64,000 nucleotides of DNA, from positions 64,252 through 128,251 of the forward strand of contig VMHB01000001.1 of NCBI GenBank assembly GCA_007378985.1, written 5' to 3'. The DNA comes from Parcubacteria group bacterium Greene0714_7. Its GTDB lineage: Bacteria > Patescibacteriota > Minisyncoccia > Phycocordibacterales > Phycocordibacteraceae. Shown piece after piece: positions 2,695 to 59,759 of the stretch; the first letter of the stretch is position 1; every line of letters starts with the position of its first letter. Under the pieces are notes generated by a model. The model had not been told where the DNA came from, did not search any database, and saw only the letters and a list, made by a program, of their open reading frames with translations. The translations under genes were made by a program, and so were the position numbers.

Positions 2695-2705
2695 GAGAGA
2701 GGAAG

Positions 2706-2998
2706 AGGGATTCGGTAACAGATAGTTTTACTTTGTAAGATTTCTTCAATTCTTTCGAGGGTTCGGTCACAAGTAAATTTCCTGACGGAAATTTCTCGCG
2801 ACCCTAGCTCGGCATTTTTGCCTTGTGAGGCGTAAACAAAAATATGCCTGCGCTTTTCGAATCCCTCACGTGAGCCAAATTGTTAGGGATTCGGTCACGG
2901 ATAATTTTAAAAAATAAAATTTCCGCGACCCCGACTCGCCGACAAGCGATCGCTTCGCTCGCCTTGTGTACCGCCTCCGTCTTTCGAATCCCTCACCG
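2706..2998. repeat. Tandem array of about 120-bp repeat units (starts near 2706, 2757, 2885), each beginning gagggattcggtcac and ending ctttcgaatccctcac, next to tRNA-Val
   Basis: Unit ends are inverted copies of each other and copy the T-loop of the adjacent tRNA-Val (gagggattcgaa). Inside each unit: a hairpin (aaatttcctgacggaaattt) and a conserved core ttctcgcgacccNagctcggcatttttgccttgtgaggc. Related copies lie at 9397-9480, 10140-10240 (inverted), 31870-31940 and 50690-50800. Confidence 0.6.
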
Positions 2999-3050
2999 CA
3001 TTACAAACAATAAGTGCCGAACGCGAAAGCGTTCGGCATCTTTTGTTTTG

Positions 3051-3123
3051 TGCGCGGTGAGGGATTCGAACCCCCGACATCGTCAACGTCAATGACGCGC
3101 TCTACCAACTGAGCTAACCGCGC
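3051..3123 (-). tRNA. tRNA-Val (anticodon GAC)
   Basis: Reverse complement folds as a cloverleaf: acceptor GCGCGGT, D-arm GCTCAGTTGGTAGAGC, anticodon stem CGTCA/TGACG with loop TTGACGT, T-arm GGGGGTTCGAATCCCTC. No encoded CCA. Confidence 0.85.
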
Positions 3124-3493
3124 AAAGTGAGGAAGAGAATGTCCACGCTCTGCGTGACGCTTCTTCTTTCCTAACGCCTGCGCAGGGAGCTTAAGCTCTC
3201 CGCACAAGTCAAGAGAGAGTAGCTCGTTTTAAGGCTTTTTTCAAGACCGCCCTCCTTCACAATGGCATATTTGACAGGTATTACGTTCAGAGTACAATCA
3301 AAAATTATAAGTCAATTTTAAACTAATATTCATGTTTGGCGATAAATCTTTCATTGCAATCCCAACACAAACGGCAAATTGTCATGGGTGCGGTTGGCGT
3401 ATTTCTGCAAGCAAAGGTACTTGTGCTAATAAGAAATGTCCTTTGAAATCCTAAAGGATTTTCAAAGTGTTGTAGAATAAAAGAGTCTCAGTA

Positions 3494-5605: not shown

Positions 5606-7900
5606 ATGCACACACAAACGTATAGAGTAAAAGGAATGCATTGTGCTTCGTGCTCCTCGACCATCGAGAAGACTTTTAAGAAAGTGGATGGGGTACATTC
5701 TGCGGAAGTTAATTACGGTACAGAAAAAGCAAAGATTTCTTTTGATCCCTCAAAAACCAATCCTCACGATCTTTCTAAACACATTGAGCCACTTGGATAT
5801 TCATTAGAAGTTCCAACGAGTGCAAATGAAATGGGTATGTCGGAGAGTGAACATGCAGCTCATTTAGGTTTGAATCAGTCTAAAAAAGAGAAATTAGCGG
5901 AGGTGGCTGATATGCGAACAAAAGTGCTTTCCGCCATTCCTATCGCCGTCTTCGCCGCTTTCGTCATGGGTTGGGATATTCTTGCCGAGTACAGTATCAC
6001 TCCGGCGATGAGCTATACACTCAAAGAATTTTTCCATCACTTACTCCCAATACTTGCGACCTATATTTTGTTTGTGGTTGGTACGCCATACTTACTTGGT
6101 TTTTATAGATTCTTACGCTATGGAAAGGCGAACATGGATACCCTGATTGGTATTGGTACCACCGCCGCCTTTCTATACAGCTTTGCAGTTACGGCTTTCG
6201 AGGAAACACTCAGGCCTTTTATCAATGTTGACTATCAATACTACGATGTGACCATTGTAGTTATTACCTTTATTGCACTTGGTAAATATTTGGAAGCTCG
6301 ATCGAAAATAAAGACGGGGGATGCTATCGAGAAGCTTCTCAATCTTCAAGCTAAAACCGCTTTGGTCATTCGAGATGGAAAGGAAATAGAGATCTCGGTC
6401 AACGACGTTACACATGGAGATCTAATTATCGTTAAACCTGGTGCGAAAATTCCGGTTGATGGCACTATCACAGAAGGTTCATCCTTTATTGATGAGTCGA
6501 TGGTCACGGGAGAGCCGATGCCAGTAGGGAAGAAGATCGGAGACAGCGTTGTCTCCGGAACCATAAACACAAGCGGATCATTCACGTTTAAAGCAACAAA
6601 GGTTGGGTCAGAAACATTGCTCGCCCAGATCATAACAATGGTCGAGGATGCCCAAGGGAGCAAAGCCCCTATTCAGGCACTTGCAGACAAAATTTCGTCA
6701 ATCTTTGTGCCCATTGTTCTTGTGATTGCGTTTCTTACGCTTGGTGCATGGCTCATTGTAGGGTCACAGTATTTGGGTTTCTCTCAGGCACTTTCATTTG
6801 GCCTTGTGTCGTTTGTTGGAATTCTCGTCATTGCGTGTCCGTGTGCTCTAGGACTTGCAACTCCCACAGCAATTATTGTCGGAGTCGGTAAAGGTGCAAA
6901 AGAGGGCATTCTTATCAAAGACGCCTCTACTCTTGAAAAACTTCACAAGGTGGACACGGTTATTGTGGACAAAACTGGCACTATTACTGTCGGCAAACCA
7001 ACTCTGGTTGATATTCAAAATCTCTCAAGCGTAACGGATGATGAACTGGTATCGATTCTTGCTTCGCTTGAGAAAAAATCAGAGCATCCGATTGCACGTG
7101 CGATTGTGAACTACGCTGAGGAGAAAAATATTCCTGTATCCACTATTTCAAATTTTGAAGGAATACAGGGTAAGGGTCTCAGGGGAGTAGTGAACGGCAC
7201 CGAATACTTTGTAGGTAATGCAAAACTTGTGGGCGATCTTAAGGTTTCATTTGAAGCTAGTACGCTGAACAAGTTTACTTCAGAAGGGAAGACACCCGTT
7301 ATTCTCACGACAAAAGAAAAAGTCTTAGGTTTTGTTATGGTGGCAGATGAAATAAAACCCGAATCAAAACAAGCTGTTGCCAATCTTCACAAACTGGGAG
7401 TTAAGGTGGTTATGCTTACGGGAGACGATGAAAAAGCTGCGAGATACATGGCATCGATGGTTGGCATCGATGATGTGGTTGCTCACGTGTTGCCACAAGA
7501 CAAATTGGCGAAAATAAAAGAATTGCAATCGCAAGGTCGAGTGGTTGCTATGGCGGGTGATGGCGTGAATGATGCACCAGCACTTGCCCAAGCAGATGTG
7601 GGCATCGCCATGGGCACGGGTACTGATGTAGCAATAGAGTCAGCGGGCATTACGCTTCTTGGCGGTGATATTTCAAAACTGGTGAAAGCCATTAGGCTTT
7701 CCAAGATCACCATGCGGGGGATCAAACAGAATCTCTTTTGGGCCTTCATCTACAACATTATCGGTATTCCTCTTGCTGCGGGAGTCTTATACCCAGTCTT
7801 CGGATGGCTCTTAAATCCAGTGTTTGCAGGATTTGCTATGGCGATGTCGTCGGTGTCGGTAGTGTCGAATTCATTACGAATCAAAGGTAAAAAATTATAA
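5606..7900 (+). CDS. copA: Copper-translocating P1B-type ATPase
   Basis: N-terminal HMA domain (GMHCASC), CPC transmembrane metal site, DKTGT phosphorylation motif, GDGVNDAP hinge. Confidence 0.9.
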
Positions 7901-9981: not shown

Positions 9982-10053
9982 GGCCCCATCGTCTAACGGT
10001 TAGGACACAAGCTTTTCAAGCTTGGAACCCGGGTTCGATTCCCGGTGGGGTCA
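9982..10053 (+). tRNA. tRNA-Glu (anticodon TTC)
   Basis: Acceptor GGCCCCA; anticodon stem-loop CAAGC-TTTTCAA-GCTTG; T-arm CGGGTTCGATTCCCG. Confidence 0.8.
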
Positions 10054-10088
10054 TGATTACAAAAAAGCCTGCAACGCAGGCACTTTTT

Positions 10089-10440
10089 GTTCATGACCCC
10101 AAGCACGAGAATAATTTCTCGTGCGTCCGGGAATCGAATGGCACAGGCATATTTTTGTTTGTGCCTCACAAGGCAAAAATGCCGAGCCGGGGTCGCGAGA
10201 AATTTCTGTCAGGAAATTTACTTGTGACCGGTTTCCCGGTGGGGTCACAAAGTCAAAAACATGCCGACTGCTCGGCATTTTTTACTTTGTGACAGCCGGA
10301 GCCATGTCGCTTGCGACGGGCGAGGCGGGGTCGAGCGCACTTAGTATTTTGTGAGCCTTCGGAGCAAAATACTTAGTGACGGGTGACCACAAAGAAAAAA
10401 CACGCTAGTGAGCCGTGATCGATTCCCGGTGGGGTTCGAA
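10089..10440. repeat. Composite non-coding region downstream of tRNA-Glu: inverted copies of the tRNA 3' end (10091-10102, 10125-10136), an inverted about 100-bp repeat unit (10140-10240), direct copies of the tRNA 3' end (10210-10228, 10412-10430) and a conserved hairpin element (10285-10395)
   Basis: The string cgattcccggtggggt of tRNA-Glu recurs twice downstream. 10190-10232 is the reverse complement of 2761-2800. 10293-10395 matches 32345-32450 almost base for base. Confidence 0.6.
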
Positions 10441-10475
10441 ATGGTGACCGACCCCATTTCCTTCATTGAGTCTTA

Positions 10476-11911: not shown

Positions 11912-11955
11912 CCTGTATAGTATAATTTAACGACCGTTAGATTATACTATACAGG
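11912..11955. promoter_or_regulatory. Palindrome B, copy 1: cctgtatagtataat-ttaacgaccgttag-attatactatacagg
   Basis: 15-bp perfect inverted arms that each contain a TATAAT-like hexamer; related copies at 46059-46100 and 51107-51148. Confidence 0.5.
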
Positions 11956-12009
11956 ATGGAGAGTAATTCTAAAGATTTTAGGAGAGGAATGGTTTACCAA
12001 GGTCGGACC

Positions 12010-12045
12010 TTTGTATTTTAAGATACCCCTAATTCGCACGAATTA
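12010..12045. promoter_or_regulatory. Palindrome A, copy 1: aagatacccctaattcgcacgaattaggggtatctt
   Basis: 17-bp perfect arms; the outer half-sites ATACCCC/GGGGTAT match the CsoR-operator half-sites at 5297-5314. A second copy lies at 45981-46014. Confidence 0.5.
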
Positions 12046-12105
12046 GGGGTATCTTAATTAAAAATTATTTAGGTATCGTGATGTGGCATGAATCAGTGGT
12101 ATATG

Positions 12106-12167
12106 AAAAGGACATTGAAGTGATTTGATATACAAAATCACTTCAATGTCCTTTTTTCTTTTCCCTA
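12106..12167. terminator. Bidirectional intrinsic terminator between the convergent alkA-like gene and ahcY
   Basis: About 20-bp perfect stem (ggacattgaagtgattt...aaatcacttcaatgtcc) flanked by an A-tract and a T-tract. Confidence 0.7.
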
Positions 12168-12190
12168 AACCCTAACCACTAATCACTAGC

Positions 12191-14515: not shown

Positions 14516-14651
14516 ATAAAGAAAGGGGTTAGCTTCTAGGTGCTAGGTTCTAGCTTTCTGAAAATTGAAAAGCTAGCACCTAGTTCCTAGTACCTAAAAC
14601 CTATCCCAGAGTTTACCTCGTGAGCTGAAAAAATAAAAGAAATCGAAGAAC
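14516..14651. repeat. Heptamer-periodic imperfect hairpin element between trxB and the pfkB-kinase start
   Basis: Reverse complement reads ...ctaggaactaggtgctagcttttcaattttcagaaagctagaacctagcacctagaagctaacccc...ATG; homologous to 21236-21336. Confidence 0.55.
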
Positions 14652-15575: not shown

Positions 15576-15683
15576 AAAATAGCTTTCAGGTGTCAGCTTA
15601 CAGCTTTCAGCTTAAAAAACAAAATCCACACCTCTCTTTAAAATAAAAAAACCAAGATGGATTTAAGATTCGGTTCAAAAAAC

Positions 15684-17392: not shown

Positions 17393-18565
17393 TCAAGGCA
17401 AGAATTGTCGCAAAAATCCCATGACGGAATTACTGACTTCTTTGATAGCAATGCCAGCAGTAGGACGAGCAAAATTGTCGCCAGTCAGCCCCCATATAGT
17501 GAGTCCATAGGCTACCGCCCATGACGAATCTTTTATTTTTGCATCACTCGCAATATTAAGTGAAGCAATTTTTGAGTGGAGCTTCAATGCTGATTCTGCA
17601 ATTTCTTTTATAGGGCCAATACCGGAACCACCTCCTGAAAGAACAATGCCTGCAGGGAGTAGTTGATCCTTACCAAGTTTTTTTAAATGACCATCGATGA
17701 GTTCAAAGATGTCAGTGAGTCGCGCAGTCAAAATGTCATCAAATTTTTTCTTTGAGTAGGTAGCGTTGGTTATTGCACCGAGTTTTAATTGCTCCGCTTC
17801 ATCAAGTGAGATTCTGAGCCCCAATGCAATATCTTTTGTGATGTCCATCGAGCCAATGCGAAATACTTTCAGTGATACCGGCATACCGTTATCAAATACA
17901 ACTATTGAAACTGTTTCAGCGCCTATGTTTGCAAGAACGCACCCGGCTTTTTTTTCAGCATTTGAAAGGGTAATGATGGATCCTGCGAGAGGTGACGCCA
18001 TAGTATCAGCCACGGCAATATCAGCTCGCTCAACGGACTCAATGAGGTCGTTTACATGTTGCTCTAAACAGGTCACGAACAGTGTTTCGACAGAAAGTTT
18101 TGTTCCTTTCATTCCATGTGGGCGACCTAACACTTCTGAACCATCTATTGAAAACACCAAGGGCACCGTGTGGAGAATTTTCCTGTTTACCAGTCTTCCT
18201 GATACATTTTCGCGGGATGCGTCAATTGCTTTTTCGATATCAAGATCAGTAACTTCAGCGTCAGCTCGAGAAATAATTGCATCTCCTTTGCCTCGTACCT
18301 CATCAAGTCCAATGCCACCGATAGAGAGAAAGGCGGTTTTTATTTTTACACCTGCAAATTCTGAAGCCTGCGTCGCGGCAATGCGAATTGATCGAGCTAC
18401 ATCGTCTGCGTTTACAATGTAGCCATGTCGAAGCCCTTTTGATTCTGCATATCCCGTGCCTATGATTTTTGGGAATAGAGAGGTGCGGTCTGCCGATTCG
18501 CGCGCAATGACAACGCGCACCTGATAGGTGCCAATATCGATGCCAACTGCGATACGGGGTGCCAT
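17393..18565 (-). CDS. ftsA: Cell division protein FtsA
   Basis: Actin-like ATPase fold (AVGIDIGTYQVRVVIA, DIGGG-like phosphate motifs); upstream of ftsZ. Start placed at MAPRIAVGIDIG because the longer ORF would translate a motif that is non-coding at two other loci. Confidence 0.85.
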   Translation of the reverse strand: MAPRIAVGIDIGTYQVRVVIARESADRTSLFPKIIGTGYAESKGLRHGYIVNADDVARSIRIAATQASEFAGVKIKTAFLSIGGIGLDEVRGKGDAIISRADAEVTDLDIEKAIDASRENVSGRLVNRKILHTVPLVFSIDGSEVLGRPHGMKGTKLSVETLFVTCLEQHVNDLIESVERADIAVADTMASPLAGSIITLSNAEKKAGCVLANIGAETVSIVVFDNGMPVSLKVFRIGSMDITKDIALGLRISLDEAEQLKLGAITNATYSKKKFDDILTARLTDIFELIDGHLKKLGKDQLLPAGIVLSGGGSGIGPIKEIAESALKLHSKIASLNIASDAKIKDSSWAVAYGLTIWGLTGDNFARPTAGIAIKEVSNSVMGFLRQFLP

Positions 18566-18576
18566 TGTAATAGGGG

Positions 18577-18610
18577 ATAGGCGACGCTTCGTCGGATCCG
18601 AAGGGATCAT
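18577..18610. promoter_or_regulatory. Conserved two-hairpin motif, copy 1 (ataggcgacgcttcgtcggatccgaagggatcat) in the ftsA leader
   Basis: Near-identical copies at 50161-50195 and 59728-59759. Hairpins are cgacg-ctt-cgtcg and gatcc-gaag-ggatc. Confidence 0.55.
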
Positions 18611-18658
18611 GTGGTTTTTACCACAAAACGTTGTCGTCAAACTTATCCTATCACGCAC

Positions 18659-19075
18659 TCAGCTATACGGGGTGGGGATTTTCAGTGTTTTGCAGAACTT
18701 TTTTTCGAGAGCTTCCATTTTTTTACCGTGGTCGTGTCCTTGTAAGTGGAGCATTCCGTGAACGAAAAGAAAGGGGAGATAGGTGGCGGTCTCCATTTTA
18801 AATTGTGGTGCCTTTTTTTTCACCGCACTCATACAGATATATATTTCTCCAGTTTTTTTGGATAGAGGGAAGGAAAGAATGTCAGTTGGAACATCTTTCC
18901 CTCGGTAGTGCTGATTCAGTTCCTGCATTTTTCCCGGTGGGACGAAAACAAGTGAGAGTGCATATTCTTTACCAAGTACTTTTTCTTTCATCATTGAAAA
19001 AGGCACTCGCGGAAGTGAGTGCCTTGCTGTATTTGCGACGACGAACTTCATTTCTTGTCCTTTCCTAAAATTCAA
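18659..19075 (-). CDS. ybeY: Endoribonuclease YbeY (rRNA maturation factor)
   Basis: HGMLHLQGHDH zinc-binding motif; about 138 aa. Confidence 0.85.
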   Translation of the reverse strand: MNFRKGQEMKFVVANTARHSLPRVPFSMMKEKVLGKEYALSLVFVPPGKMQELNQHYRGKDVPTDILSFPLSKKTGEIYICMSAVKKKAPQFKMETATYLPFLFVHGMLHLQGHDHGKKMEALEKKFCKTLKIPTPYS

Positions 19076-19357: not shown

Positions 19358-19440
19358 TGTGGAGCATATTTAAGCACAGACTGCTCCCAGAAGCAACTCG
19401 AAATCGTTCGGTGTTTAGATGGTGTGTTTCCCTCTAACAC

Positions 19441-20550
19441 CTAAGCTCTATGTCCTCGGCTTACGTACTGCGCAAGCTTGTCGAGAGGTAGTGTCATTTG
19501 TGCTTGTGTAACGACTGAGCGCACGATGGCTGTTTGATCCAAGGCTTCGCGTTGTCCAATGATGGCAATATATTTACTACCCGAGTCTGTTCCTTTCTGT
19601 ACTTGATCACGCAGGCTATCCAACATCAATGCCTGACCTACTGCAACTTGAGCACGCCAGAGTGCCTCAAGTAATGCGAAAGAGCGAAGTTTTGCAGCAT
19701 CCCCAACATGCACAATAAAGCACGCTGGTTCATCGTCGAGTGAATCAATGTCAACTCTTCCCTGCATTTCCAAGCTTATAGCAACGGCTGGCTCTGCTTG
19801 GGTACCTCGTGCGCGTTTTGCGCATTCGTCGTATCTACCACCACTTGCAACACGCACCCGTTCGCCTTTCTTATTTGTTCCTTCAATTGCGAATAAAAGT
19901 TCTGATTCAATACCAGGTTCTGCAATCAGTCGAGACTGTATAGAATAGGCAATACCTACTGATTCAAAGAGGGAAAGAGTCGAGAGCATTGTCTTGCGTG
20001 AATTTTCCGAAAGGTAATCGATTGAGCGTGGCATTTGTTCGACGCCCGGATCATTCCTCATAATCATGGTGCGGTAGGCTGAGTCTGGATCATGTGGGGT
20101 AATTTGCTTCAAATCTTCTGGAATTGCTTCGGGGTGTTTTTTGAAAAAGTTTCCTAACTCACGAGTGAACCTTTTGCGTGACTCTGCATCACCTACTGAT
20201 GACACAAGCACAGAAAGGTCAGTGAATCCCGCGACATCTACAATAGAAAGCGCTGTTTTTATTACTATGGCTGGTGCAATTGCGTGGCGCGTTGAAAAGA
20301 TACCAAATGAAAGCAATGTGCCTGTACCTTTGCGTGATACTCCCCAAGATTGTGTTGGTCCTTTGCCACTTTGAGCGAGGTTAACGAGCGCAACTGATGC
20401 TGTTGTTTTTTGATTTGTAGTTGCACTTGTGGCAACGAGCGCCCGGCGTGGAATTGTTGCAGGCTGCGTTGTGAATCCGTATGCGTAGGCAATGCGTGCA
20501 ATTGATTGCTCGAGAGATTCATTCTGTTTTCCTTTTTCAATTGATCGCAT
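19441..20550 (-). CDS. Histidine--tRNA ligase-like class II aaRS protein (divergent HisRS/HisZ family)
   Basis: GGRYD motif 3, HisRS-like C-terminal anticodon-binding region (KYIAIIGQREALDQTAIVRSV), but motif 2 is poorly conserved and the N-terminus is short. Confidence 0.55.
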   Translation of the reverse strand: MRSIEKGKQNESLEQSIARIAYAYGFTTQPATIPRRALVATSATTNQKTTASVALVNLAQSGKGPTQSWGVSRKGTGTLLSFGIFSTRHAIAPAIVIKTALSIVDVAGFTDLSVLVSSVGDAESRKRFTRELGNFFKKHPEAIPEDLKQITPHDPDSAYRTMIMRNDPGVEQMPRSIDYLSENSRKTMLSTLSLFESVGIAYSIQSRLIAEPGIESELLFAIEGTNKKGERVRVASGGRYDECAKRARGTQAEPAVAISLEMQGRVDIDSLDDEPACFIVHVGDAAKLRSFALLEALWRAQVAVGQALMLDSLRDQVQKGTDSGSKYIAIIGQREALDQTAIVRSVVTQAQMTLPLDKLAQYVSRGHRA

Positions 20551-21183: not shown

Positions 21184-21235
21184 GGTTGTTTTCGTTGTGC
21201 AATGCTATTTATGCAAAAATATTTTTTTCGTATAC

Positions 21236-21336
21236 ACTTGTTGAAGGTTCTAGGTGCTAGGGACTAGGTGTTAGCTTTTAATTTTCAGAAAGCTAGAAGC
21301 TAGAAGCTAGAAGCTAGAAGCTAGCACCTAATCTCA
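21236..21336. repeat. Heptamer-periodic hairpin element ending in (GCTAGAA)x4 immediately before the pth start codon
   Basis: ggttctaggtgctagggactaggtgttagc-ttttaattttcagaa-agctagaagctagaagctagaagctagaagctagcacctaatctca|ATG. The left arm reverse-complements to the right-arm repeats. Confidence 0.6.
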
Positions 21337-21924
21337 ATGTACATCATCGTTGGACTTGGTAACCCTGGAGAAAAATACGAGCATACACGCCACAATGCGG
21401 GACGTATGGCACTTGATTGGTTTAAAAAGAAGTATGATTTTTCTGATTGGGAGTTTAATAAAAAATTAAACGCACACACTGCAGAAGGGAAGGTGGGAAA
21501 AGCGAAGGCACTCTTGGTTATTCCGGATACTTTCATGAATAATTCCGGTAAAGCTGTCTTGGGGTTGGTGAAATCAAAAAAAGCCGCATCAGAATTATTG
21601 GTTGTATACGATGATCTCGATATCCCGTTCGGTACCTTTAAGATTTCATACGGAAGAAGTTCTGGTGGACACAACGGTCTTGAGTCAATTATCCGTGCAG
21701 TGAAAACGAAAGATTTTCCACGCCTGCGTTTTGGTGTTTCGCCAGCAACACCATCTGGAAAATTAAAGAAGCCAATGGGAGAAAAAAAAGTTCTCGATTT
21801 TCTTTTAGGGGATTTTTCGAAAAAAGAAAAAGAAGTGATGCCAAAGATTTTGAAGAAGGTAGGGGAGGCGATTGAGATTTCGGTTACGGAAGGTTATCAA
21901 ATAGCGATGAATAAATCTAACTAA
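21337..21924 (+). CDS. pth: Peptidyl-tRNA hydrolase
   Basis: MYIIVGLGNPGEKYEHTRHNAGRMALD N-terminal signature. Confidence 0.9.
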   Translation: MYIIVGLGNPGEKYEHTRHNAGRMALDWFKKKYDFSDWEFNKKLNAHTAEGKVGKAKALLVIPDTFMNNSGKAVLGLVKSKKAASELLVVYDDLDIPFGTFKISYGRSSGGHNGLESIIRAVKTKDFPRLRFGVSPATPSGKLKKPMGEKKVLDFLLGDFSKKEKEVMPKILKKVGEAIEISVTEGYQIAMNKSN

Positions 21925-23294: not shown

Positions 23295-23350
23295 TTAATC
23301 AGTAATCGATTGGGCGCTTCTAGGTTCCAGCTTCTAGGGGCTAGGTTCTA
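23295..23350. repeat. Heptamer-repeat leader (reverse-complement cctagaa cctagcc cctagaa gctggaa cctagaa) directly upstream of the rpsA ATG
   Basis: Read directly; same family as 21236-21336 and 14516-14651. Confidence 0.55.
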
Positions 23351-23491
23351 GGAAGGATTAACACCAACCAAAGTGATATAAAAAAGCCCTAGGGCTTTGT
23401 CGGGAATTTATACCATATATATCATCCGAGAACAAACTGATTGACACTGCTTTCTTAAAGTTCTAGGTTGTGTGAACTAATATATAATTTT

Positions 23492-27449: not shown

Positions 27450-27520
27450 TTGCCAGCTGCCAGGTTTCAGGTGCCAGCTTTCAGCCTCAAACTTCGAGCT
27501 GTCAGGTTCCAGCTTAAATT
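27450..27520. repeat. Heptamer-periodic repeat (gccagct gccaggt ttcaggt gccagct ttcagcc...) downstream of gyrA
   Basis: Period-7 pattern read directly; a related stretch at 27590-27630 precedes the methyltransferase start. Confidence 0.5.
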
Positions 27521-28383: not shown

Positions 28384-29673
28384 ATGAAGCTTTTTAATGT
28401 AATCGTCGTTGGTATCTTTCTTGCGCTCGCCATTAGTGCAGTTATCATTTTTTCAACGTTCACCGCACTAAATAAAAATAGTGTTGGCAAAGTGTCTGTG
28501 TGGGGTTCGCTTCCTCTCTCTACTTTTGAAGCAGTAATGGGGGGGTTGCAGGAAGGAAACAGCACCTATGATGGTGTTACGTACACATTTGTTCCTGCTT
28601 CTGAGCTCATTCCAAATCTTGTTGAAGCCATTGCTGCCGGCAGGGGTCCTGACTTGGTTATTTTTCCTGCTGAATATTTACTCTCTCAAGGCGACAAGCT
28701 TGTCTCTATTCCTTATAGCAATGTGAGTCGGCGTGAATTTCAGAACACCTTCATTCAGGCAGGCGAGGTGTTTTTGGCCAATGATGGCATAAAAGGAATT
28801 CCATTCACCGTTGATCCTTTGGTGATGTATTGGAATCGTACATTGTTTGCAAATGCAGGCCTTGCACAGCCACCAAAGTTTTGGGATGAACTTTCTGACA
28901 TAGCTCCGCGTCTTACAAAAACACAAGAAAACGGAACATTGACTCAAAATTCTGTTGCACTTGGTGCGTGGGATAACATCTTTCACGCAAAGGCTATTTT
29001 TCTTACACTCGCCCATCAACTTGGAAACCCTGTCGTTGGAAGAAATAGTGAAGGGGTATATGTATCTATGATTTCAGAAGGAGCTGTGGAGAGCGGTGCC
29101 CTCACGCCTGTAAATTCAGCTGTTCGTTTTTATACTGATTTTTCTGATCCAGTAAAACCTGTGTATTCATGGAATCGCTCAGCACCTGAATCGCGAAATG
29201 CATTTCTTGCAGGAGGGGTTGCCATGTATTTTGGTTCCGTGAGTGAACTCTTGGGGATGCGTCAGGCAAATCCAAATCTAAACTTTGATGTGGCACCAGT
29301 CCCGTCAGTTCGAGGTGGTGGAGCAGGGGTTTCGGCAGAGGTGACAGCGCTCTCGATTCCTCGAGGAAGTCGCAACATTGGGGGATCACTTGCCGTTGCA
29401 CTCGCACTTACCTCTGCAAAGTCACAGCAAGCGCTCTTATCGCTTATTTCACTTCCTTCAGTTCGAAGAGACGCGGTATCAAATAATCCAAATGATCCAT
29501 ATGGTGCAATGTTTCAAAATGCCGCAGTACTTTCGTTTTCGTTTCTTGATCCAGACCCATCAGCAACGGACGCAATCTTTAAAAGGATGATGGAAAGCGT
29601 ATCCTCTGGCAAGCTTCGGGTAACAGAGGCATCACAAGGTGCACATAGCGAATTGCAGGCACTTTTGAGGTAA
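28384..29673 (+). CDS. Extracellular solute-binding-protein-like protein (SBP family 1 / MalE-like fold) with N-terminal TM anchor
   Basis: N-terminal TM; DLVIFPAEYL and PKFWDEL-type motifs typical of cluster-B sugar-binding proteins; no adjacent ABC permease or ATPase. Confidence 0.55.
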   Translation: MKLFNVIVVGIFLALAISAVIIFSTFTALNKNSVGKVSVWGSLPLSTFEAVMGGLQEGNSTYDGVTYTFVPASELIPNLVEAIAAGRGPDLVIFPAEYLLSQGDKLVSIPYSNVSRREFQNTFIQAGEVFLANDGIKGIPFTVDPLVMYWNRTLFANAGLAQPPKFWDELSDIAPRLTKTQENGTLTQNSVALGAWDNIFHAKAIFLTLAHQLGNPVVGRNSEGVYVSMISEGAVESGALTPVNSAVRFYTDFSDPVKPVYSWNRSAPESRNAFLAGGVAMYFGSVSELLGMRQANPNLNFDVAPVPSVRGGGAGVSAEVTALSIPRGSRNIGGSLAVALALTSAKSQQALLSLISLPSVRRDAVSNNPNDPYGAMFQNAAVLSFSFLDPDPSATDAIFKRMMESVSSGKLRVTEASQGAHSELQALLR

Positions 29674-29744
29674 GAATTAGGGTATATAGTGTTTAGGCGA
29701 TGCCTCATTGGATCCGTAGGGATCATAAGAAAACAAAAAACAAT

Positions 29745-30110
29745 ATGAAAAAAATATTTGCACGAGCTCTCCCGTTTTCTCTGTCGTTAGCATTGCCTTT
29801 TGTTGTACTTGCATCTGGTTGCGATAGTGCAAGCGCTGGAGGTCTTTGTAATCCTCTTGGATATAATTCTCTGTGGGAATTTTTACAGCGAATGCTCCAG
29901 TTGATTACTCAAATTGGTTTTCCTGTGATTGTGCTTTTCATTGTATTCATAGGGTTTAAATTCATCACTGCCGAAGGCAAACCTGAAGAGATTGCAAAAG
30001 TTAGAAGTCTCTTTTTCTGGGCGATCGTTGGCTCTTTAGTGGTGCTTGGAGCTCAAGCGCTTGCACTTGCAATACAGGCAACTGTTAACGATATTCAGGC
30101 TGGCTTGTAA
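29745..30110 (+). CDS. T4SS-pilin-like (TrbC/VirB2-type) small membrane protein, paralog 1
   Basis: Signal peptide, Cys-containing stretch, then two hydrophobic helices separated by a short charged loop (TAEGKPEEIAKVRS). Confidence 0.5.
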   Translation: MKKIFARALPFSLSLALPFVVLASGCDSASAGGLCNPLGYNSLWEFLQRMLQLITQIGFPVIVLFIVFIGFKFITAEGKPEEIAKVRSLFFWAIVGSLVVLGAQALALAIQATVNDIQAGL

Positions 30111-31421: not shown

Positions 31422-31497
31422 GATTTTCCAAGTCTTGAATAACCACAAGAATTAAGAAGTTGTTTGGTTCATTTAAGTCTTTTGTATTGATTAGTTA

Positions 31498-31700
31498 TGG
31501 ATGTACTGTCTAAATTCATTGGTAAGATTGTTGAGTTGATACTCAACGGTATTCATTGCACATGCAGATAATCCTGAGGAAAGAAAAAAAGGAGAACGAA
31601 AGATGCTTTGGGGGATCATTGGATTCTTCATCATGGTATCTGTTATAGGCATCCTGACTGCGGTTACGGGAACCTTCGGGGTTAGTTTACCGAGGTAATT
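31498..31700 (+). pseudogene. Decayed fragments of a fifth pilin-like paralog
   Basis: A short N-terminal ORF (MDVLSKFIGKIVELILNGIHCTCR*) followed, out of frame, by EERKKGERKMLWGIIGFFIMVSVIGIL..., matching the loop and TM2 of the paralogs. Confidence 0.5.
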
Positions 31701-31724
31701 AATACAAAAAAAGAGATTAATAAA

Positions 31725-31755
31725 ACACTCCGCGAATAGCGGAGTGTTTTATATT
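31725..31755. terminator. Intrinsic terminator (aaaacactccgcgaatagcggagtgtttta)
   Basis: 9-bp stem with flanking A-tract and T-tract. Confidence 0.6.
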
Positions 31756-31789
31756 TGAAGTGTGTAGAGAGATGTAGGGTGACTTGGTC

Positions 31790-31986
31790 ACGAGTCACTA
31801 ACTATTTTGCTTCGCTCGCTCGCAAAATACTAAGTGCTCTCGAAGCCTCTCGGCACGATTTGCTAATCGCCCAGCTCGGCAATTTTGCCTTATGCTTCGC
31901 ATAAACAAAATTATGCCTCCGCCTTTCAAGTCCTCACGCACGTAAAGCAGTTTGCGTGCTTTCCGCCTACACTCGTAAACTCATTG
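31790..31986. repeat. Non-coding repeat modules downstream of tRNA-Leu(TAG): an inverted partial copy of the conserved hairpin element (31790-31870) and a repeat-unit core whose end copies the local T-arm (agctcggcaattttgcc...ccgcctttcaagtcctcacgc)
   Basis: 31874-31940 aligns with 2807-2877, except that the terminal T-loop mimic is ttcaagtcctc (Leu-TAG T-arm) instead of ttcgaatccctc (Val T-arm). Confidence 0.55.
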
Positions 31987-32068
31987 TGGGCGGAAGAGGA
32001 CTTGAACCTCCACCCCTTGCGGGACCAGCTCCTAAGGCTGGCGCGTCTGCCAATTTCGCCATCCGCCC
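31987..32068 (-). tRNA. tRNA-Leu (anticodon TAG)
   Basis: Reverse complement: acceptor GGGCGGA/TCCGCCC, anticodon stem-loop CCAGC-CTTAGGA-GCTGG, long variable arm, T-arm GGAGGTTCAAGTCCTCT. Confidence 0.75.
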
Positions 32069-32153
32069 AATGCTTGAAGAGTAGCATTAGACGCCTGCTA
32101 TTCAAAGATTCATGCTTTTAAAATGTACTTATTTCTGTTAGAGTTTCTCAATC

Positions 32154-32227
32154 TGCCCGAAAGCTATGCTTACGGGTGGAAATAAAAAAGAGAAGAAACA
32201 TTCGCCCGTAAGCATAGCTTTCGGGCG
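32154..32227. repeat. Perfect 21-22-bp inverted repeat (gcccgaaagctatgcttacggg ... cccgtaagcatagctttcgggc) with a 28-nt A-rich loop
   Basis: Read directly; no flanking T-tract, and it lies inside a gene-free region. A second 11-bp hairpin follows at 32239-32264. Confidence 0.5.
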
Positions 32228-32274
32228 CTTCGCTCCAAGATAGTGAAAACAAATTTTCACTATCCTTCTCGCTC

Positions 32275-32327
32275 GCGCCCGTAGCTCAGTTGGTAGAGCG
32301 ACTCCCTCTTAAGGAGACGGTCGCAGG
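32275..32327 (+). pseudogene. tRNA-Lys-like 5' fragment (acceptor, D-arm, anticodon arm CTT, 5' T-stem) with no matching 3' half
   Basis: GCGCCCG-TA-GCTCAGTTGGTAGAGC-G-ACTCC-CTCTTAA-GGAGA-CGGTC-GCAGG, followed at once by the conserved hairpin element. No TTCGAAT-CCTGC-CGGGCGC found downstream. Confidence 0.5.
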
Positions 32328-32334
32328 ATTTTCT

Positions 32335-32580
32335 TGTTTTGTGCGTGCCGGAGCCATGTCGCTTTGCGACGGCGAGGCGGGGTCGAGAGCACTTAGTATT
32401 TTCTGAGTCTTACGAGAATAATACTTAGTGAATCGTGACCACAAAAAATAAAAAAGCACTACGCAAGTAGTGTTTTTTGCTTGTGTGCGTGCCGGAACGA
32501 TGTCCTGAGTCTCGAAGGACCGTGAGGCGGGGCCAGCGACCGAGACGAGCGACGGCGAGTCGAGAGTCGTGGCCACAAAT
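32335..32580. ncRNA. Two tandem copies (one complete, one variant) of a conserved about 100-nt hairpin element (gccggagccatgtcgcttgcgacgg-cgaggcggggtcgag-gcacttagtatttt...aaaatacttagtga-gtgaccacaaa)
   Basis: 32345-32450 matches 10293-10395 with substitutions confined to the loop of the long cacttagtatttt/aaaatacttagtg stem. 32480-32570 shares the ends and has a different central hairpin. Calling it an RNA is inference. Confidence 0.4.
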
Positions 32581-38064: not shown

Positions 38065-38127
38065 TGCACATTATTCTCTTGCTGTTTACCCCTAAACCCT
38101 ATACCCTAAACACTAACCCCTTCCCAT
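38065..38127. repeat. Heptamer-repeat leader ccctaaa ccctata ccctaaa cactaac ccc abutting the ATG at 38128
   Basis: Read directly; same family as the leaders of serS, relA and the hisS-like gene. Confidence 0.5.
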
Positions 38128-38967: not shown

Positions 38968-39079
38968 CATTAGAAGCCTTTAGGTTTCAGCTGTCAGCCT
39001 TCCGAGAGGAGTTTGTATTTGTTCTGTCTATAAGCTAAAACCTGAAACCTAAAACCTGCCTTTCTGGTATAATAGACGT
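38968..39079. promoter_or_regulatory. Heptamer-repeat region plus an extended -10 (tggtataat, 39066-39074) ending 5 nt before the clpB ATG; a leaderless clpB transcript is possible
   Basis: gctaaaa cctgaaa cctaaaa cctgcc...tggtataatagacgtATG read directly. Confidence 0.4.
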
Positions 39080-45878: not shown

Positions 45879-45980
45879 CGATTACAATCCTAACATTTCC
45901 ATACACTGACAGTCTTGGCTTTGTAATTCGTAAAGAGCGCACAATTACCCCGCGTTCCTACTTTCTCCTATTCTATTTTC

Positions 45981-46014
45981 ATATACCCCTTATTCGTGCG
46001 AATAAGGGGTATAT
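45981..46014. promoter_or_regulatory. Palindrome A, copy 2 (atataccccttattcgtgcgaataaggggtatat)
   Basis: Same outer half-sites as copy 1. It sits in the divergent intergenic region between the acyltransferase gene and the 46171 ORF. Confidence 0.5.
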
Positions 46015-46058
46015 GAAAATACAGAGGTCGGATCTTTGTATTTTTACTTCACTTCCAT

Positions 46059-46100
46059 CGATATAGTATAATCTAACGATCGTTAAATTAAACTATATCG
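46059..46100. promoter_or_regulatory. Palindrome B, copy 2 (diverged: cgatatagtataatctaacgatcgttaaattaaactatatcg)
   Basis: Preceded by the small palindrome aaaatacagaggtcggatctttgtatttt (46021-46045). Confidence 0.45.
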
Positions 46101-46170
46101 TGATTTTAAGTCTGAAAGATGAAAAGAGGTTCTGTAGTATTTTTTGAAATGGGTGAGTTACACTGATTCT

Positions 46171-49447: not shown

Positions 49448-49501
49448 TATGGCTGGTATGCTATCATGATAATCGTTAGAATTAGCTTCATTAGAACTGC
49501 A

Positions 49502-50146
49502 ATGGCAAAAGAAAAAAAAGACAATAACGAAGATACGACGAAAGGATTTATGAGTATGGTGCGTGTTGGACGTGCAATTCCTGATTTAGAATGCGAGGTA
49601 TTTCACAACGAAAAAATAAAGAAAATTCGACTTTCTGACTATAAGGGTAAGTGGCTCGTTCTTTTTTTCTATCCAGCAGATTTCACCTTTGTGTGCCCTA
49701 CAGAACTTGAAGAACTTGCAGATTCCCATAAAATTTTTACAGATTTAGATACCGAAATTGTCAGTGTAAGTGCTGACACAGTGTTTGTGCATAAAGCATG
49801 GCACGATACATCGCCAGCAATAGCCAAAATTGAATTCCCTATGGCATCAGATACTGCAGGTAGACTCGCTCGAGCCTTCGGGACCTATATTGAAAATGAT
49901 GGCCTTGAGCATATGGACGATGAAGGATTATCGCTTCGCGGTACATTCATAATTGATCCAGATGGAATTCTTTCTACGATGGAAATCAACGATAATTCGA
50001 TTGGTCGTTCTGCACAAGAACTTATTCGCAAGCTTCAAGCTGCTCAATTTGTTCGATCGCACGGAGGTCAAGTATGTCCCGCTGCATGGAAACCGGGTGA
50101 TGATACATTGAAAGGAGGAGATTTGGATTTGGTCGGAAAGATCTAA
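49502..50146 (+). CDS. Peroxiredoxin (typical 2-Cys, AhpC/TSA family)
   Basis: Peroxidatic Cys motif FTFVCPTEL; resolving Cys near the C-terminus (VCPAAW). The true start may be at 49550 (MSMVRVG). Confidence 0.85.
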   Translation: MAKEKKDNNEDTTKGFMSMVRVGRAIPDLECEVFHNEKIKKIRLSDYKGKWLVLFFYPADFTFVCPTELEELADSHKIFTDLDTEIVSVSADTVFVHKAWHDTSPAIAKIEFPMASDTAGRLARAFGTYIENDGLEHMDDEGLSLRGTFIIDPDGILSTMEINDNSIGRSAQELIRKLQAAQFVRSHGGQVCPAAWKPGDDTLKGGDLDLVGKI

Positions 50147-50160
50147 TGAGTGTTTTGGTG

Positions 50161-50195
50161 GATAGGCGACGCTTCGTCGGATCCGAAGGGATCAT
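50161..50195. promoter_or_regulatory. Conserved two-hairpin motif, copy 2, 14 nt upstream of the 5-FCL start
   Basis: gataggcgacgcttcgtcggatccgaagggatcat, identical to copy 1 at 18577-18610. Confidence 0.55.
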
Positions 50196-51106: not shown

Positions 51107-51148
51107 CTGTATAGTATAAATTAACGATCGTTAAATTATACTATACAG
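51107..51148. promoter_or_regulatory. Palindrome B, copy 3 (ctgtatagtataaattaacgatcgttaaattatactatacag), about 118 nt upstream of parB
   Basis: 42-bp near-perfect palindrome read directly. Confidence 0.5.
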
Positions 51149-51265
51149 GTAAAGAGTAGTAGAAAGTAGGTTGGACAGTTGAATTTTTTTGAATTTTCTC
51201 AATTTTTGAGAAACAGGAGGATTTTTTATCTCACGCTTCTTTTGTGTTCGTGTTACAATTTTCCC

Positions 51266-53939: not shown

Positions 53940-53990
53940 TCAGATTAGTGTATAGGGTTTAGTGATTAGTGTATAGGGTTTCAATACAAA
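53940..53990. repeat. Heptamer-repeat leader (reverse-complement ccctata cactaat cactaaa ccctata cactaat ctga|ATG) abutting the relA start
   Basis: Read directly. Confidence 0.5.
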
Positions 53991-57559: not shown

Positions 57560-57617
57560 TGTTTTGGATTTGTTCTCCTCTCTAAACGCTATCCCCTAAA
57601 CCCTAACCCTTATTCCC
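57560..57617. repeat. Heptamer-repeat leader ctctaaa cgctatc ccctaaa ccctaac ccttatt ccc|ATG abutting serS
   Basis: Read directly. Confidence 0.5.
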
Positions 57618-58908: not shown

Positions 58909-59715
58909 ATGTCAAACCCGCAACAGCCAAAACTGAGTCTTCGAGAGAGGCGTCGCCGATTAGTCTGGGTGAAGGTTGCTGCTGGCAGTGCGGTTGTGGC
59001 TCTGTCGTTTATTGCAGTATGGTTTCTTGCGCGTATTCCCACAACCACAATCGCTTCAATTGAAGTGAAGGGAACCTCAATAGTTTCAGCTGATGAAGTC
59101 AAAAAACTTGTTGAAGAAAAATTGGATGGTTCATATGCCTATTGGATTCCACATAGAAACTCTTTGCTGTTTCCAAAAAGAAATATAGAGAATGCTCTAG
59201 CTCTTGCGTTCCCTCCACTTGCAAAAGTTTCCATTTCTCGAAATGGTTGGAGTGCGCTTACCGTCACTACAGAAGAGAGGGTAGCTACCGCCCTGTGGTG
59301 CGATGGCGTCACTGAATCTGAGACCTGTTACAGCATTGATAAGAATGGTTTTATTTTTGCCACCGCAACAGACGCCACACCTATGGTTCGTTTTTACGGC
59401 GCACTCTCGGGCGTGCCCATTGGTAGCACTTATTTGAATGGAGGATTTGCCTCTCTCAATACCTTAGTTGCTGGTATTGCTTCATCTATACATCGCACCC
59501 CGAAAACTGTTACTGTTGATGGTGCTTCGAATGATGTTGAGCTTGCGTTCCAAGACGGTGAGGTATTGAAGTTTGTTCGCACAGTAAACCAGCAAGCAAC
59601 TCTTGAAAACATTGCCTCGGTTTTTGCATCTCAGAGTTTTAAAAAGAACAAGGATTTTGAATATGCCGATTTCCGTTTCGGTGACAAGGTGTACATAAAG
59701 TTTAAAGGGGAATAG
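58909..59715 (+). CDS. ftsQ: Cell division protein FtsQ/DivIB (POTRA domain)
   Basis: Basic N-terminus, single TM, POTRA region IEVKGTSIVSADEVKKLVEEKL. Confidence 0.65.
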   Translation: MSNPQQPKLSLRERRRRLVWVKVAAGSAVVALSFIAVWFLARIPTTTIASIEVKGTSIVSADEVKKLVEEKLDGSYAYWIPHRNSLLFPKRNIENALALAFPPLAKVSISRNGWSALTVTTEERVATALWCDGVTESETCYSIDKNGFIFATATDATPMVRFYGALSGVPIGSTYLNGGFASLNTLVAGIASSIHRTPKTVTVDGASNDVELAFQDGEVLKFVRTVNQQATLENIASVFASQSFKKNKDFEYADFRFGDKVYIKFKGE

Positions 59716-59727
59716 GGGTTAGGGTTT

Positions 59728-59759
59728 AGGCGATGCTTCATCGGATCCGAAGGGATCAT
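59728..59759. promoter_or_regulatory. Conserved two-hairpin motif, copy 3 (taggcgatgcttcatcggatccgaagggatcat), about 45 nt upstream of dus
   Basis: Same as copies 1 and 2 except that the first hairpin is gatg-ctt-catc instead of gacg-ctt-cgtc (a compensatory C/G to T/A change). Confidence 0.55.

Follow-up and report, generated by a model that had tools for sequence, protein, structure and literature searches.

The 64,000-nucleotide stretch of DNA considered here (the window throughout) belongs to contig VMHB01000001.1 of Parcubacteria group bacterium Greene0714_7, and four of its gene boundaries carry the same short element made of two hairpins. According to Pfam, the genes that flank these boundaries are, on the minus strand, FtsA (17393-18565) and YbeY (18659-19075) and, on the plus strand, a solute-binding protein (28384-29673) followed by a pilin of the type IV secretion system kind, a peroxiredoxin (49466-50146) followed by 5-formyltetrahydrofolate cyclo-ligase (5-FCL, 50209), and a POTRA/FtsQ-like protein (58909-59715) followed by Dus (59805). 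The unit itself is AGGCGAYGCYTCRTCGGNTCCGNAGGGANCA(T) and consists of two abutting 5-bp stem-loops, the rest of the sequence being invariant, although outside the free positions this invariance is partly imposed by search patterns that fixed many positions. Comparison of the window with related loci and sequences, which bear L-labels (L003, L015 and so on) in what follows, showed that the unit is dispersed, occurs in either orientation, is gained and lost discretely, and has a polarity tied to one strand of the phased 7-nt repeats (heptamers) that fill many intergenic regions of the window.

A mismatch-tolerant search of the window for TAGGCGAYGCTTCRTCGGATCCGAAGGGATCAT gives three perfect plus-strand matches, at 18578-18610, 50163-50195 and 59727-59759; these are the occurrences of a preliminary description, which were real but had coordinates shifted by 1-2 nt. 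A fourth and diverged copy, which that description had overlooked, lies at 29694-29726 (+) with 3 mismatches to TAGGCGAYGCTTCRTCGGATCCGAAGGGATCAT. None of 100 dinucleotide-preserving shuffles of the window yielded any motif match, and a covariance-model search of the window returned no copy beyond the four. Copy 1 is canonical, with hairpin 1 at 18582-18594 (CGACG-CTT-CGTCG) and hairpin 2 at 18595-18608 (GATCC-GAAG-GGATC); it stands between ybeY (minus, stop 18659) and ftsA (minus, ATG 18565) and is therefore antisense to both. Copies 2 to 4 are sense, between tandem genes. In the diverged copy 2, stem 1 (hairpin 1 at 29698-29710, CGATG-CCT-CATTG) is kept by means of a G.U pair and the loop of hairpin 2 (29711-29724) has passed from GAAG to GTAG; this copy lies 20 nt past the stop of the solute-binding protein gene (29673) and 18 nt ahead of the likely pilin ATG at 29745 (MKKIF...). 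Copy 3, canonical again (hairpin 1 at 50167-50179, hairpin 2 at 50180-50193), is found 16 nt past the peroxiredoxin stop (50146) and 13 nt ahead of the 5-FCL ATG (50209). Copy 4 lies 11 nt past the stop of the FtsQ/POTRA-like gene (59715) and 45 nt ahead of the dus ATG (59805), and its hairpin 1 (59731-59743, CGATG-CTT-CATCG), which precedes hairpin 2 at 59744-59757, bears the compensatory change from C-G to T-A that had been reported: T59734 and A59740 keep the stem where copies 1 and 3 have C18585/G18591 and C50170/G50176. Orthologues were recognized for copy 1 in L015, L042 and L025, for copy 3 in L061, where the differences fall at the variable sites only, and for copy 4 in L030.

Both hairpins are predicted to fold on both strands, as RNA and as DNA. 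When 60-nt contexts were folded, hairpin 2 formed in every copy and the canonical hairpin 1 in copies 1 and 3 on both strands, being absent for copy 4 and the diverged copy, with moderate z-scores of about -1 to -3.6; as isolated 34-mers folded as DNA, copies 1 and 4 gave both hairpins and the diverged copy hairpin 2 only. It is hardly credible that such a structure is part of an intrinsic transcription terminator. The element does lie downstream of stop codons, and in copy 1 the hairpin at 18595-18608 precedes a T-rich run, but the U-tract is absent at the other copies, whose flanks are not T-rich, the stems have 5 bp only and copies are also present in divergent promoter regions, whereas classical terminators with a GC-rich hairpin and a T-run are found elsewhere in the window (e.g., in the intergenic regions near ~22170 and ~46441).

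The four copies belong to a larger family. A pattern scan of species-representative genomes gave 30 loci, on both strands, in six metagenome-assembled genomes (MAGs) labelled Paceibacterota, Patescibacteria or Saccharibacteria, the 748,944-bp contig of JAZJYZ01 accounting for 8 exact matches and JBBAAE01 and SCTS01 for 10 each. A looser pattern with two pairs per stem left free matched the same and related populations on metagenome contigs; the GC-rich metagenome matches L031 and L055 are chance matches and were excluded from the family, and a phage origin was rejected, viral contigs having given no motif match. A covariance model built on 37 copies produced 79 matches (61 distinct rows) in a search of 518 kb, and only a few degenerate copies came to light when it was run over the loci. 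The family ranges over a clade of the ultra-small Paceibacterota, within the candidate phyla radiation (CPR) or Patescibacteria, in at least six MAGs, at roughly 8-20 copies per ~0.75 Mb genome and 4 in the 64-kb window. Composite forms also occur. In some, a second unit that is 5'-truncated, made up of the 3' half of stem 1 with loop 1 and a stem resembling hairpin 2, comes immediately after a full copy; in others, two full copies have 12-18 nt of heptamers between them. The loci with composites of one or the other kind are the 6516-6590 region of L036, L057, L051, L033, L042 10912-10978, L019 5523-5601 and L054 1821-1905. A 5'-truncated second unit would give the 5' half of stem 1 two alternative partners. 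Rfam 15 at the gathering threshold reports only tRNAs in the whole window, a permissive Rfam scan around copy 3 yielded only a chance Histone3 match (E=7.8), and our literature searches found no account of the motif sequence, of repetitive extragenic palindromic (REP) elements with their REP-associated tyrosine transposases (RAYT) in CPR bacteria, or of CPR heptamer repeats.

The two hairpins, to which the preliminary description had drawn attention, are under selection. Among the 61 distinct copies, standard pairs make up 98.4% of cells, against 92.3% after shuffling; 5 pairs are changed on both sides, against 1.7, and 43 cells, against 12.3; no shuffle out of 500 reached the observed value on any of these pairing measures, and sliding the 3' partners by 1-3 columns lowers pairing to 23-55%. 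The covariation comes from one pair in each stem. The stem-1 pair is UA in 29 copies, CG in 25, UG in 1 and unpaired in 5, while the stem-2 pair takes three Watson-Crick states (AU 44, GC 7, UA 7), besides GU 1, UG 1 and unpaired 1. Variation is essentially restricted to these two pairs and to one base in each loop, the middle one in loop 1 (C or T) and the second one in loop 2 (A, C or T). Every combination of states at the four sites is present, so that covariation is not the mere inheritance of two subfamilies. G.U and C.A exceptions are about equally frequent in the stems; a C.A mismatch is a G.U on the opposite strand, and wobble pairs therefore name no functional strand. A conserved site for recognition by a protein or a nuclease, which had been put forward as a second option, is also conceivable, because nearly all other positions are invariant.

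Intergenic regions matched between genomes by their flanking genes show how the unit comes and goes: a discrete 32-34-nt block is present or absent between genomes whose flanks are 93-99% identical. A clean block of 34 nt (ATAGGCG...GATCAT) distinguishes the filled site of L024 from the empty one of L003 (flanks 93% identical); the TAGNNNN array around it is otherwise collinear, and the pair shows no target duplication. L016 and L050 differ by ~32 nt, and L013 and L045, whose flanks are 92% identical, carry the element in opposite orientations at different points of one intergenic region. The window itself has an empty site at 19380-19433 (minus strand), a short heptamer hairpin downstream of the gene at 19441-20550, where the close relative L015 (97-99% identical) and the distant L025 have the element together with a long heptamer hairpin, and it has no copy at ~21240-21336, where L042 (about 91% identical) has one. 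Another telling case is rpsP of JAZJYZ010000001.1 (L026 2569-3009, minus), in which the acidic C-terminal tail of bS16 contains the element in frame and thereby gains AGDASSDPKGSKSE; the insert is bounded by a 10-bp direct repeat, AAAAAGTGAA, and all seven of the closest S16 homologues lack exactly these 14 residues. Deleting the element and one repeat from bS16 gives KKTPI-VKSEP-AAEV, which aligns with the usual KKTPI-KKEEP-APEV. To judge from this reconstruction, the rpsP case would fit an insertion of 32 nt with a 10-bp duplication; the protein alignment alone is clean, since at the DNA level L064, the closest relative, has diverged too far in this tail to serve as an empty site.

Turnover is accompanied by retention at some places. 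Genomes whose flanking genes are 74-86% identical keep a copy at the same site between ybeY and ftsA (four genomes) and upstream of efp (two), and further same-site copies are retained past the peroxiredoxin and the FtsQ-like genes. In such orthologous pairs 8% of the positions of the 31-nt core differ, almost only at variable sites, whereas the 40-nt flanks are ~50% different in an ungapped comparison. Some close relatives differ by a full compensated switch, for instance L017 and L056 (from A-T to G-C), which suggests replacement or conversion by another copy more naturally than two independent point mutations. To the right of copy 1, a stretch of 60 nt (18611-18670) that comprises the 3' end of ybeY and a small hairpin (GTGGTTTTTACCAC) is 100% identical to L025 5282-5341 while the surrounding genes are only ~77% identical, and this indicates local recombination or strong constraint.

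The orientation of the copies was determined for 62 distinct ones, flanking open reading frames (ORFs) being called with the motif masked. Between tandem genes, 27 of the 62 copies are sense and 17 antisense (one of the latter, inside rpsP, is actually sense); 8 lie between divergent and 3 between convergent genes, and a single flanking gene was called for the remaining 7. Sixty of the 62 are extragenic, the exceptions being the in-frame copy in the rpsP tail and one in the last codons of an RluA-like ORF. The gene on the 5' side of the element, whichever its direction, is usually the nearer one, at a median gap of roughly 20-35 nt, and the distance to the downstream start runs from 0 to more than 500 nt. 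Neighbours are unrelated housekeeping genes (ftsA, ybeY, peroxiredoxin, 5-FCL, dus, pilin, efp, lepA), along with those for a PrsW protease, dihydroorotate dehydrogenase (DHODH), 6-phosphogluconate dehydrogenase (6PGD) and a LOG-family protein, and form no coherent set. In 42 of the 62 copies the element lies on whichever strand is locally richer in G. A strict polarity with respect to the replication strand was considered and rejected: 6 of the 8 copies on the 749-kb contig match the replichore pattern, which is a mere bias confounded with gene orientation, and L015 and L025 each have opposite-strand copies ~900 nt apart.

This census largely refutes the proposal from which the analysis started, namely that the motif is a cis-regulatory RNA or regulator-binding site common to the 5' leaders of ftsA, 5-FCL, dus and others and controls the downstream gene, a proposal that we now regard as quite improbable. 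The window copies do lie 12-45 nt upstream of starts, the hairpins do covary, and the copy before ftsA is kept in four genomes and that before efp in two. Nevertheless, the copies in the ftsA and efp leaders are reverse-complemented relative to those of 5-FCL, dus and the pilin; each window copy lies as near the end of the gene before it as the start of the one after it, or nearer; downstream starts lie at the widely scattered distances given above, with the 5'-side neighbour usually close; downstream genes share no function; copies are gained and lost between near-identical genomes; one copy sits within the rpsP coding sequence; and there is no match to an Rfam family. In place of the spacing of at least 14 nt to a start codon that had been given, the gap at ftsA is 12 nt from the 33-nt core (18578), or 11 nt counted from 18577. 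Placement in coding sequence or at random and uncompensated breaks of the stems, which had been named as grounds for dismissing a structured RNA, were checked as well: the structure survives, and a gene-specific leader role does not.

Nor does the longer ftsA ORF that would be translated through the motif hold up, since it is unconserved and L015 and L042 have in-frame stops between the motif and MAPRIAVGIDIGT. Judging by the sequences, the real start of ftsA is the ATG at 18565 (MAPRIAVGIDIGT; start codon 18565..18563) and the longer ORF is an artefact. Starts called mechanically within or beyond the motif include GTG 18658 or ATG 18610 for ftsA (17393-18658) and ATG 29700 for the pilin (ORF 29700-30110), whose true start is likely the ATG at 29745, in frame with the ORF from 29700. 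Motif-spanning ORFs in L008, L022 and L047 are artefacts too, the real pilin gene of L047 starting downstream. For annotation, ORFs that start inside the motif, such as the long ftsA ORF or the pilin ORF from 29700, are to be distrusted.

Sense copies between tandem genes are the commonest class, and typically lie 0-45 nt past the upstream stop codon, the leading TAG of the element itself serving as the stop in four cases. One may thus envisage a functional RNA module of 3' untranslated (UTR) and intercistronic regions, whose hairpins would be bound after the stop by a conserved RNA-binding protein or RNase, so that the upstream mRNA is stabilized or processed or translation termination and reinitiation are modulated, dispersal being secondary. 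Several copies lie 5' of a heptamer hairpin in a predicted multi-branch structure, the core is far better conserved than the flanks at orthologous sites, and G.U exceptions slightly outnumber C.A on the motif strand, all of which speak for such a module. We nonetheless consider it unlikely: 17 copies are antisense and 8 lie in divergent regions, among orthologous copies the best conserved, that of ybeY-ftsA and that upstream of efp, lie antisense or between divergent genes, presence and absence alternate between genomes with 93-99% identical flanks, a generic barrier to exonucleases needs no invariant loops, and C.A mismatches are about as frequent as G.U. Still less probable, to the point of being remote, is that sense and antisense copies on different mRNAs pair through their complementary loops, as kissing hairpins that extend to a duplex of ~31 bp, and thereby link the expression of unrelated genes, for instance the ftsA and efp leaders with the 3' UTRs of other genes. 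Both orientations are in principle transcribed, sense and antisense copies would be fully complementary given that all are nearly identical, and the long-retained copies are antisense or divergent. On the other hand, this idea is pure inference, variable positions would mismatch between copies, and turnover between close relatives speaks against a fixed network.

What the polarity of the element does follow is the strand of the heptamers. Many intergenic regions of the window are made of phased 7-nt units in which only (T/C)AG is kept, the other four bases varying between arrays; arrays of at least three TAG units number 16 in the window, against 0.67 expected from shuffles, and all are intergenic. 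Arrays of the TAG type are found at 12161-12188, 14530-14603, 19430-19450, 21246-21330, 23330-23355, 38088-38115, 53946-53980 and 57578-57605, and arrays of the CAG/CTG type at 15581-15617, 27455-27512 and 38975-39059. With a period of 7 the array puts a stop triplet in all three frames, and CTAG or TTTAGGG/CCCTAAA units do so on both strands. Arrays often come as inverted pairs that are predicted to form long imperfect hairpins, with z-scores down to -4, and the C/A-rich arm often abuts a start codon that has no Shine-Dalgarno sequence (38128, 57618, 21337 and ftsA). The element usually begins in register with such arrays. The heptamers run into copy 4 as TAGGGGT TAGGGTT TAGGCGA (59713-59733, +), where the first bases of the element keep the array register, into copy 1 as TAGGGGA TAGGCGA (18571-18584, +), with a longer array in L015, L025 and L042, and into copy 2 as TAGTGTT TAGGCGA (29687-29700, +). 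Over the family, at least two phased YAG units stand within the 35 nt upstream, read on the strand of the element, in 46 of the 62 copies, compared with 4 of 62 for CTR units, and the flank profile is T-8 A-7 G-6 NNNN T-1 followed by AGGCGA, the start of the element (usually T, then AGGCGA) continuing the heptamer register. Polarity thus follows the G/T-rich strand of (T/C)AGNNNN arrays, and since either strand of an intergenic hairpin contributes a YAG arm, both orientations relative to genes are accounted for. At several loci the predicted fold is multi-branched, with an outer heptamer stem around hairpin 1, hairpin 2 and an inner heptamer hairpin.

The arrays evolve quickly in their own right. 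The window has at 21245-21338 an inverted pair of TAG-heptamer arrays that forms a long imperfect hairpin and contains no element, although the orthologous region of L042 has one; at 21212-21336 the window and L015 (1712-1815) are 98.8-99.5% identical in their flanks and wholly different in the unit and length of their heptamer hairpins (TAGCTTC type in the window, CAGTNNA type in L015), and L042 (8106-8259) has a third type, TAGGGTT. The intergenic heptamer hairpin likewise differs between window 19380-19433 and L015 3594-3709, where the distribution of alleles (window and L042 versus L015 and L025) departs from overall genome similarity. These observations suggest cassette-like replacement or recombination of intergenic regions. 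We found no account of phased heptamer arrays in CPR bacteria; the nearest resemblance, for the arrays only, is to the cyanobacterial short tandemly repeated repetitive (STRR) sequences and to the TAACTGA heptamers described in Beggiatoaceae, Cyanobacteria and Bacteroidetes (PMC4679880), which are also tandem 7-nt intergenic units with stop triplets that often abut starts without a canonical ribosome-binding site. The window arrays differ in that they keep YAG only and no single specific heptamer, come as hairpin-forming inverted pairs, and host the two-hairpin element.

When the element is set against known systems, REPs come closest, or else the hairpins that end IS200/IS605-type elements. 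REPs are of similar size (~20-40 nt), extragenic, dispersed in both orientations and often placed just past stops; they likewise form hairpins whose stem covaries and whose sequence is conserved, have a polarity that suggests recognition of one strand, and carry a short conserved head 5' of the first stem (GTAG, to compare with TAGG here). The differences are that the element has two separate short hairpins instead of one long imperfect palindrome, that it occurs in tens of copies per genome and not hundreds, that it shows no pairing into bacterial interspersed mosaic elements (BIMEs) or REP doublets forming hairpins (REPINs) beyond occasional tandem or partial duplicates, that one copy has a 10-bp target duplication not made by Y1 transposition, and that it is tied to heptamer arrays, no RAYT having been found in ~520 kb. 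The head GT[AG]G fails as well, for the element has NT before AGG, with T before AGG in 52 of 62 copies and G before that T in 8 of 62. Membership of the REP class proper thus fails on the GTAG head, on copy number and, so far, on the RAYT gene. With the palindrome-associated transposable elements (PATEs) of the IS200/IS605 group the element shares a hairpin at each end, the absence of terminal inverted repeats, what seems a usual lack of target duplication and what may be a strand-specific insertion at a short target, after or within the heptamer YAG (flank TAGNNNNT before AGG; polarity on the YAG strand in 46 of 62). It is, however, far shorter than any described PATE, its target is loosely defined, the 10-bp duplication in rpsP is inconsistent, and neither tnpA nor tnpB was found.

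Other families resemble it less. The bacterial miniature inverted-repeat transposable elements (MITEs) such as Correia/NEMIS, RUP, BOX and ERIC are also non-autonomous, intergenic, co-transcribed with their neighbours and polymorphic between strains, but the element has no terminal inverted repeats (its ends, AGGCGA... and ...GGGANCA, are not reverse complements) and apparently no target-site duplication of fixed length, and is 3-10 times shorter. With cis-regulatory leader RNAs (riboswitches, attenuators, ribosomal-protein leaders) it shares a short covarying structure close to starts and differs by its unfixed orientation, the lack of a coherent regulon, strain turnover, the coding copy and the absence of an Rfam family. 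An array of tandem interspaced guide RNAs (TIGR), whose unit is a 36-nt edge-spacer-loop-spacer (PMC12045711), or a CRISPR (clustered regularly interspaced short palindromic repeats) array was rejected: copies are solitary and dispersed, without variable spacers and without tas or cas neighbours.

Taken together, these comparisons lead us to give about an even chance to the reading in which the motif belongs to an undescribed, REP-like family of insertion elements, miniature (32-34 nt) and dispersed, that is restricted to one clade of Paceibacterota. It is tempting to suppose, by analogy with the recognition of REP elements by RAYT and of IS200/IS605 ends by TnpA, that a trans-acting enzyme recognizes the element as a folded single-stranded nucleic acid and copies or moves it; recognition of this sort would explain the covarying stems, the invariant sequence and a heptamer-strand polarity that is independent of transcription. 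A transcribed copy would place hairpins of ~-8 kcal/mol (DNA energy parameters) just after stop codons or before start codons. REPs in E. coli influence mRNA decay or translation, and an inserted copy here may do so incidentally, while co-option is conceivable for a few copies that have been retained for long (ybeY-ftsA, upstream of efp).

Several observations weigh against an insertion element of this kind. A phmmer search with E. coli RayT against ORF segments of at least 60 amino acids from ~520 kb of Paceibacterota sequence, a fraction of each genome, returned no match at E<=10, and no RAYT or Y1 transposase lies between inverted copies, a weak negative; the genes bracketed by inverted copies are ordinary ones, namely a LOG-family gene and ybeY. 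No consistent target-site duplication across copies exceeds the chance level set by the heptamer flanks, which confound the test (at their longest, words shared by both flanks average 4.16, against 4.02 in shuffled pairings), and the single 10-bp duplication, that of rpsP, is at odds with a Y1/HUH mechanism. The sense excess of ~1.7:1 past stop codons could be explained by a role at the RNA level, and same-site retention between genomes whose flanking genes are only 74-77% identical is explained by selection for a local function no less well than by selfish spread. The sense excess and the long-retained copies leave room for an RNA-level role. A broader view would merge these aspects, and we think it improbable, if attractive: heptamer arrays and unit would together form an undescribed genome-structuring system of Paceibacterota, with hairpin cassettes that turn over at 99% flank identity, a unit moved into their G/T-rich arm by a single-strand-specific enzyme, and retained copies in the ftsA and efp leaders co-opted as RNA control points, perhaps by pairing with complementary copies on other mRNAs.

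The window holds other repeats. A 43-nt near-perfect palindrome, CTGTATAGTATAATTTAACGATCGTTAAATTATACTATACAGG, which is unrelated to the element, is dispersed over three intergenic sites (11913-11955, 46059-46101 and 51107-51149), two of which also share a 63-nt segment (11995-12057 and 45978-46040) that contains another hairpin (ATACCCCTAATTCG...CGAATTAGGGGTAT). Long intergenic stretches adjacent to tRNA genes (2695-3493, 10053-10475 and 31422-32576) have repeats of 120-130 nt in common (2764-2884 with 10110-10230, and 10278-10405 with 32330-32457), with a partial tRNA match at 32275-32325. They could be intron-interrupted tRNA genes or tRNA-linked repeats; Rfam at the gathering threshold reported no intron in these stretches, and tRNA introns have recently been reported for Patescibacteria (PMC13011429).

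Literature searches returned no account of dispersed repeats or structured intergenic elements in CPR/Patescibacteria, whose genomes are tiny and streamlined. If the element is what we propose, these reduced genomes would carry an active mobilization or recognition activity directed at single-stranded DNA or RNA, and the insertion polymorphisms of the element would offer a handle for strain-level population genetics of these organisms. Finally, the element draws attention to the TAG-phased heptamer hairpin cassettes at the gene boundaries of this clade as something that evolves fast and calls for an explanation.

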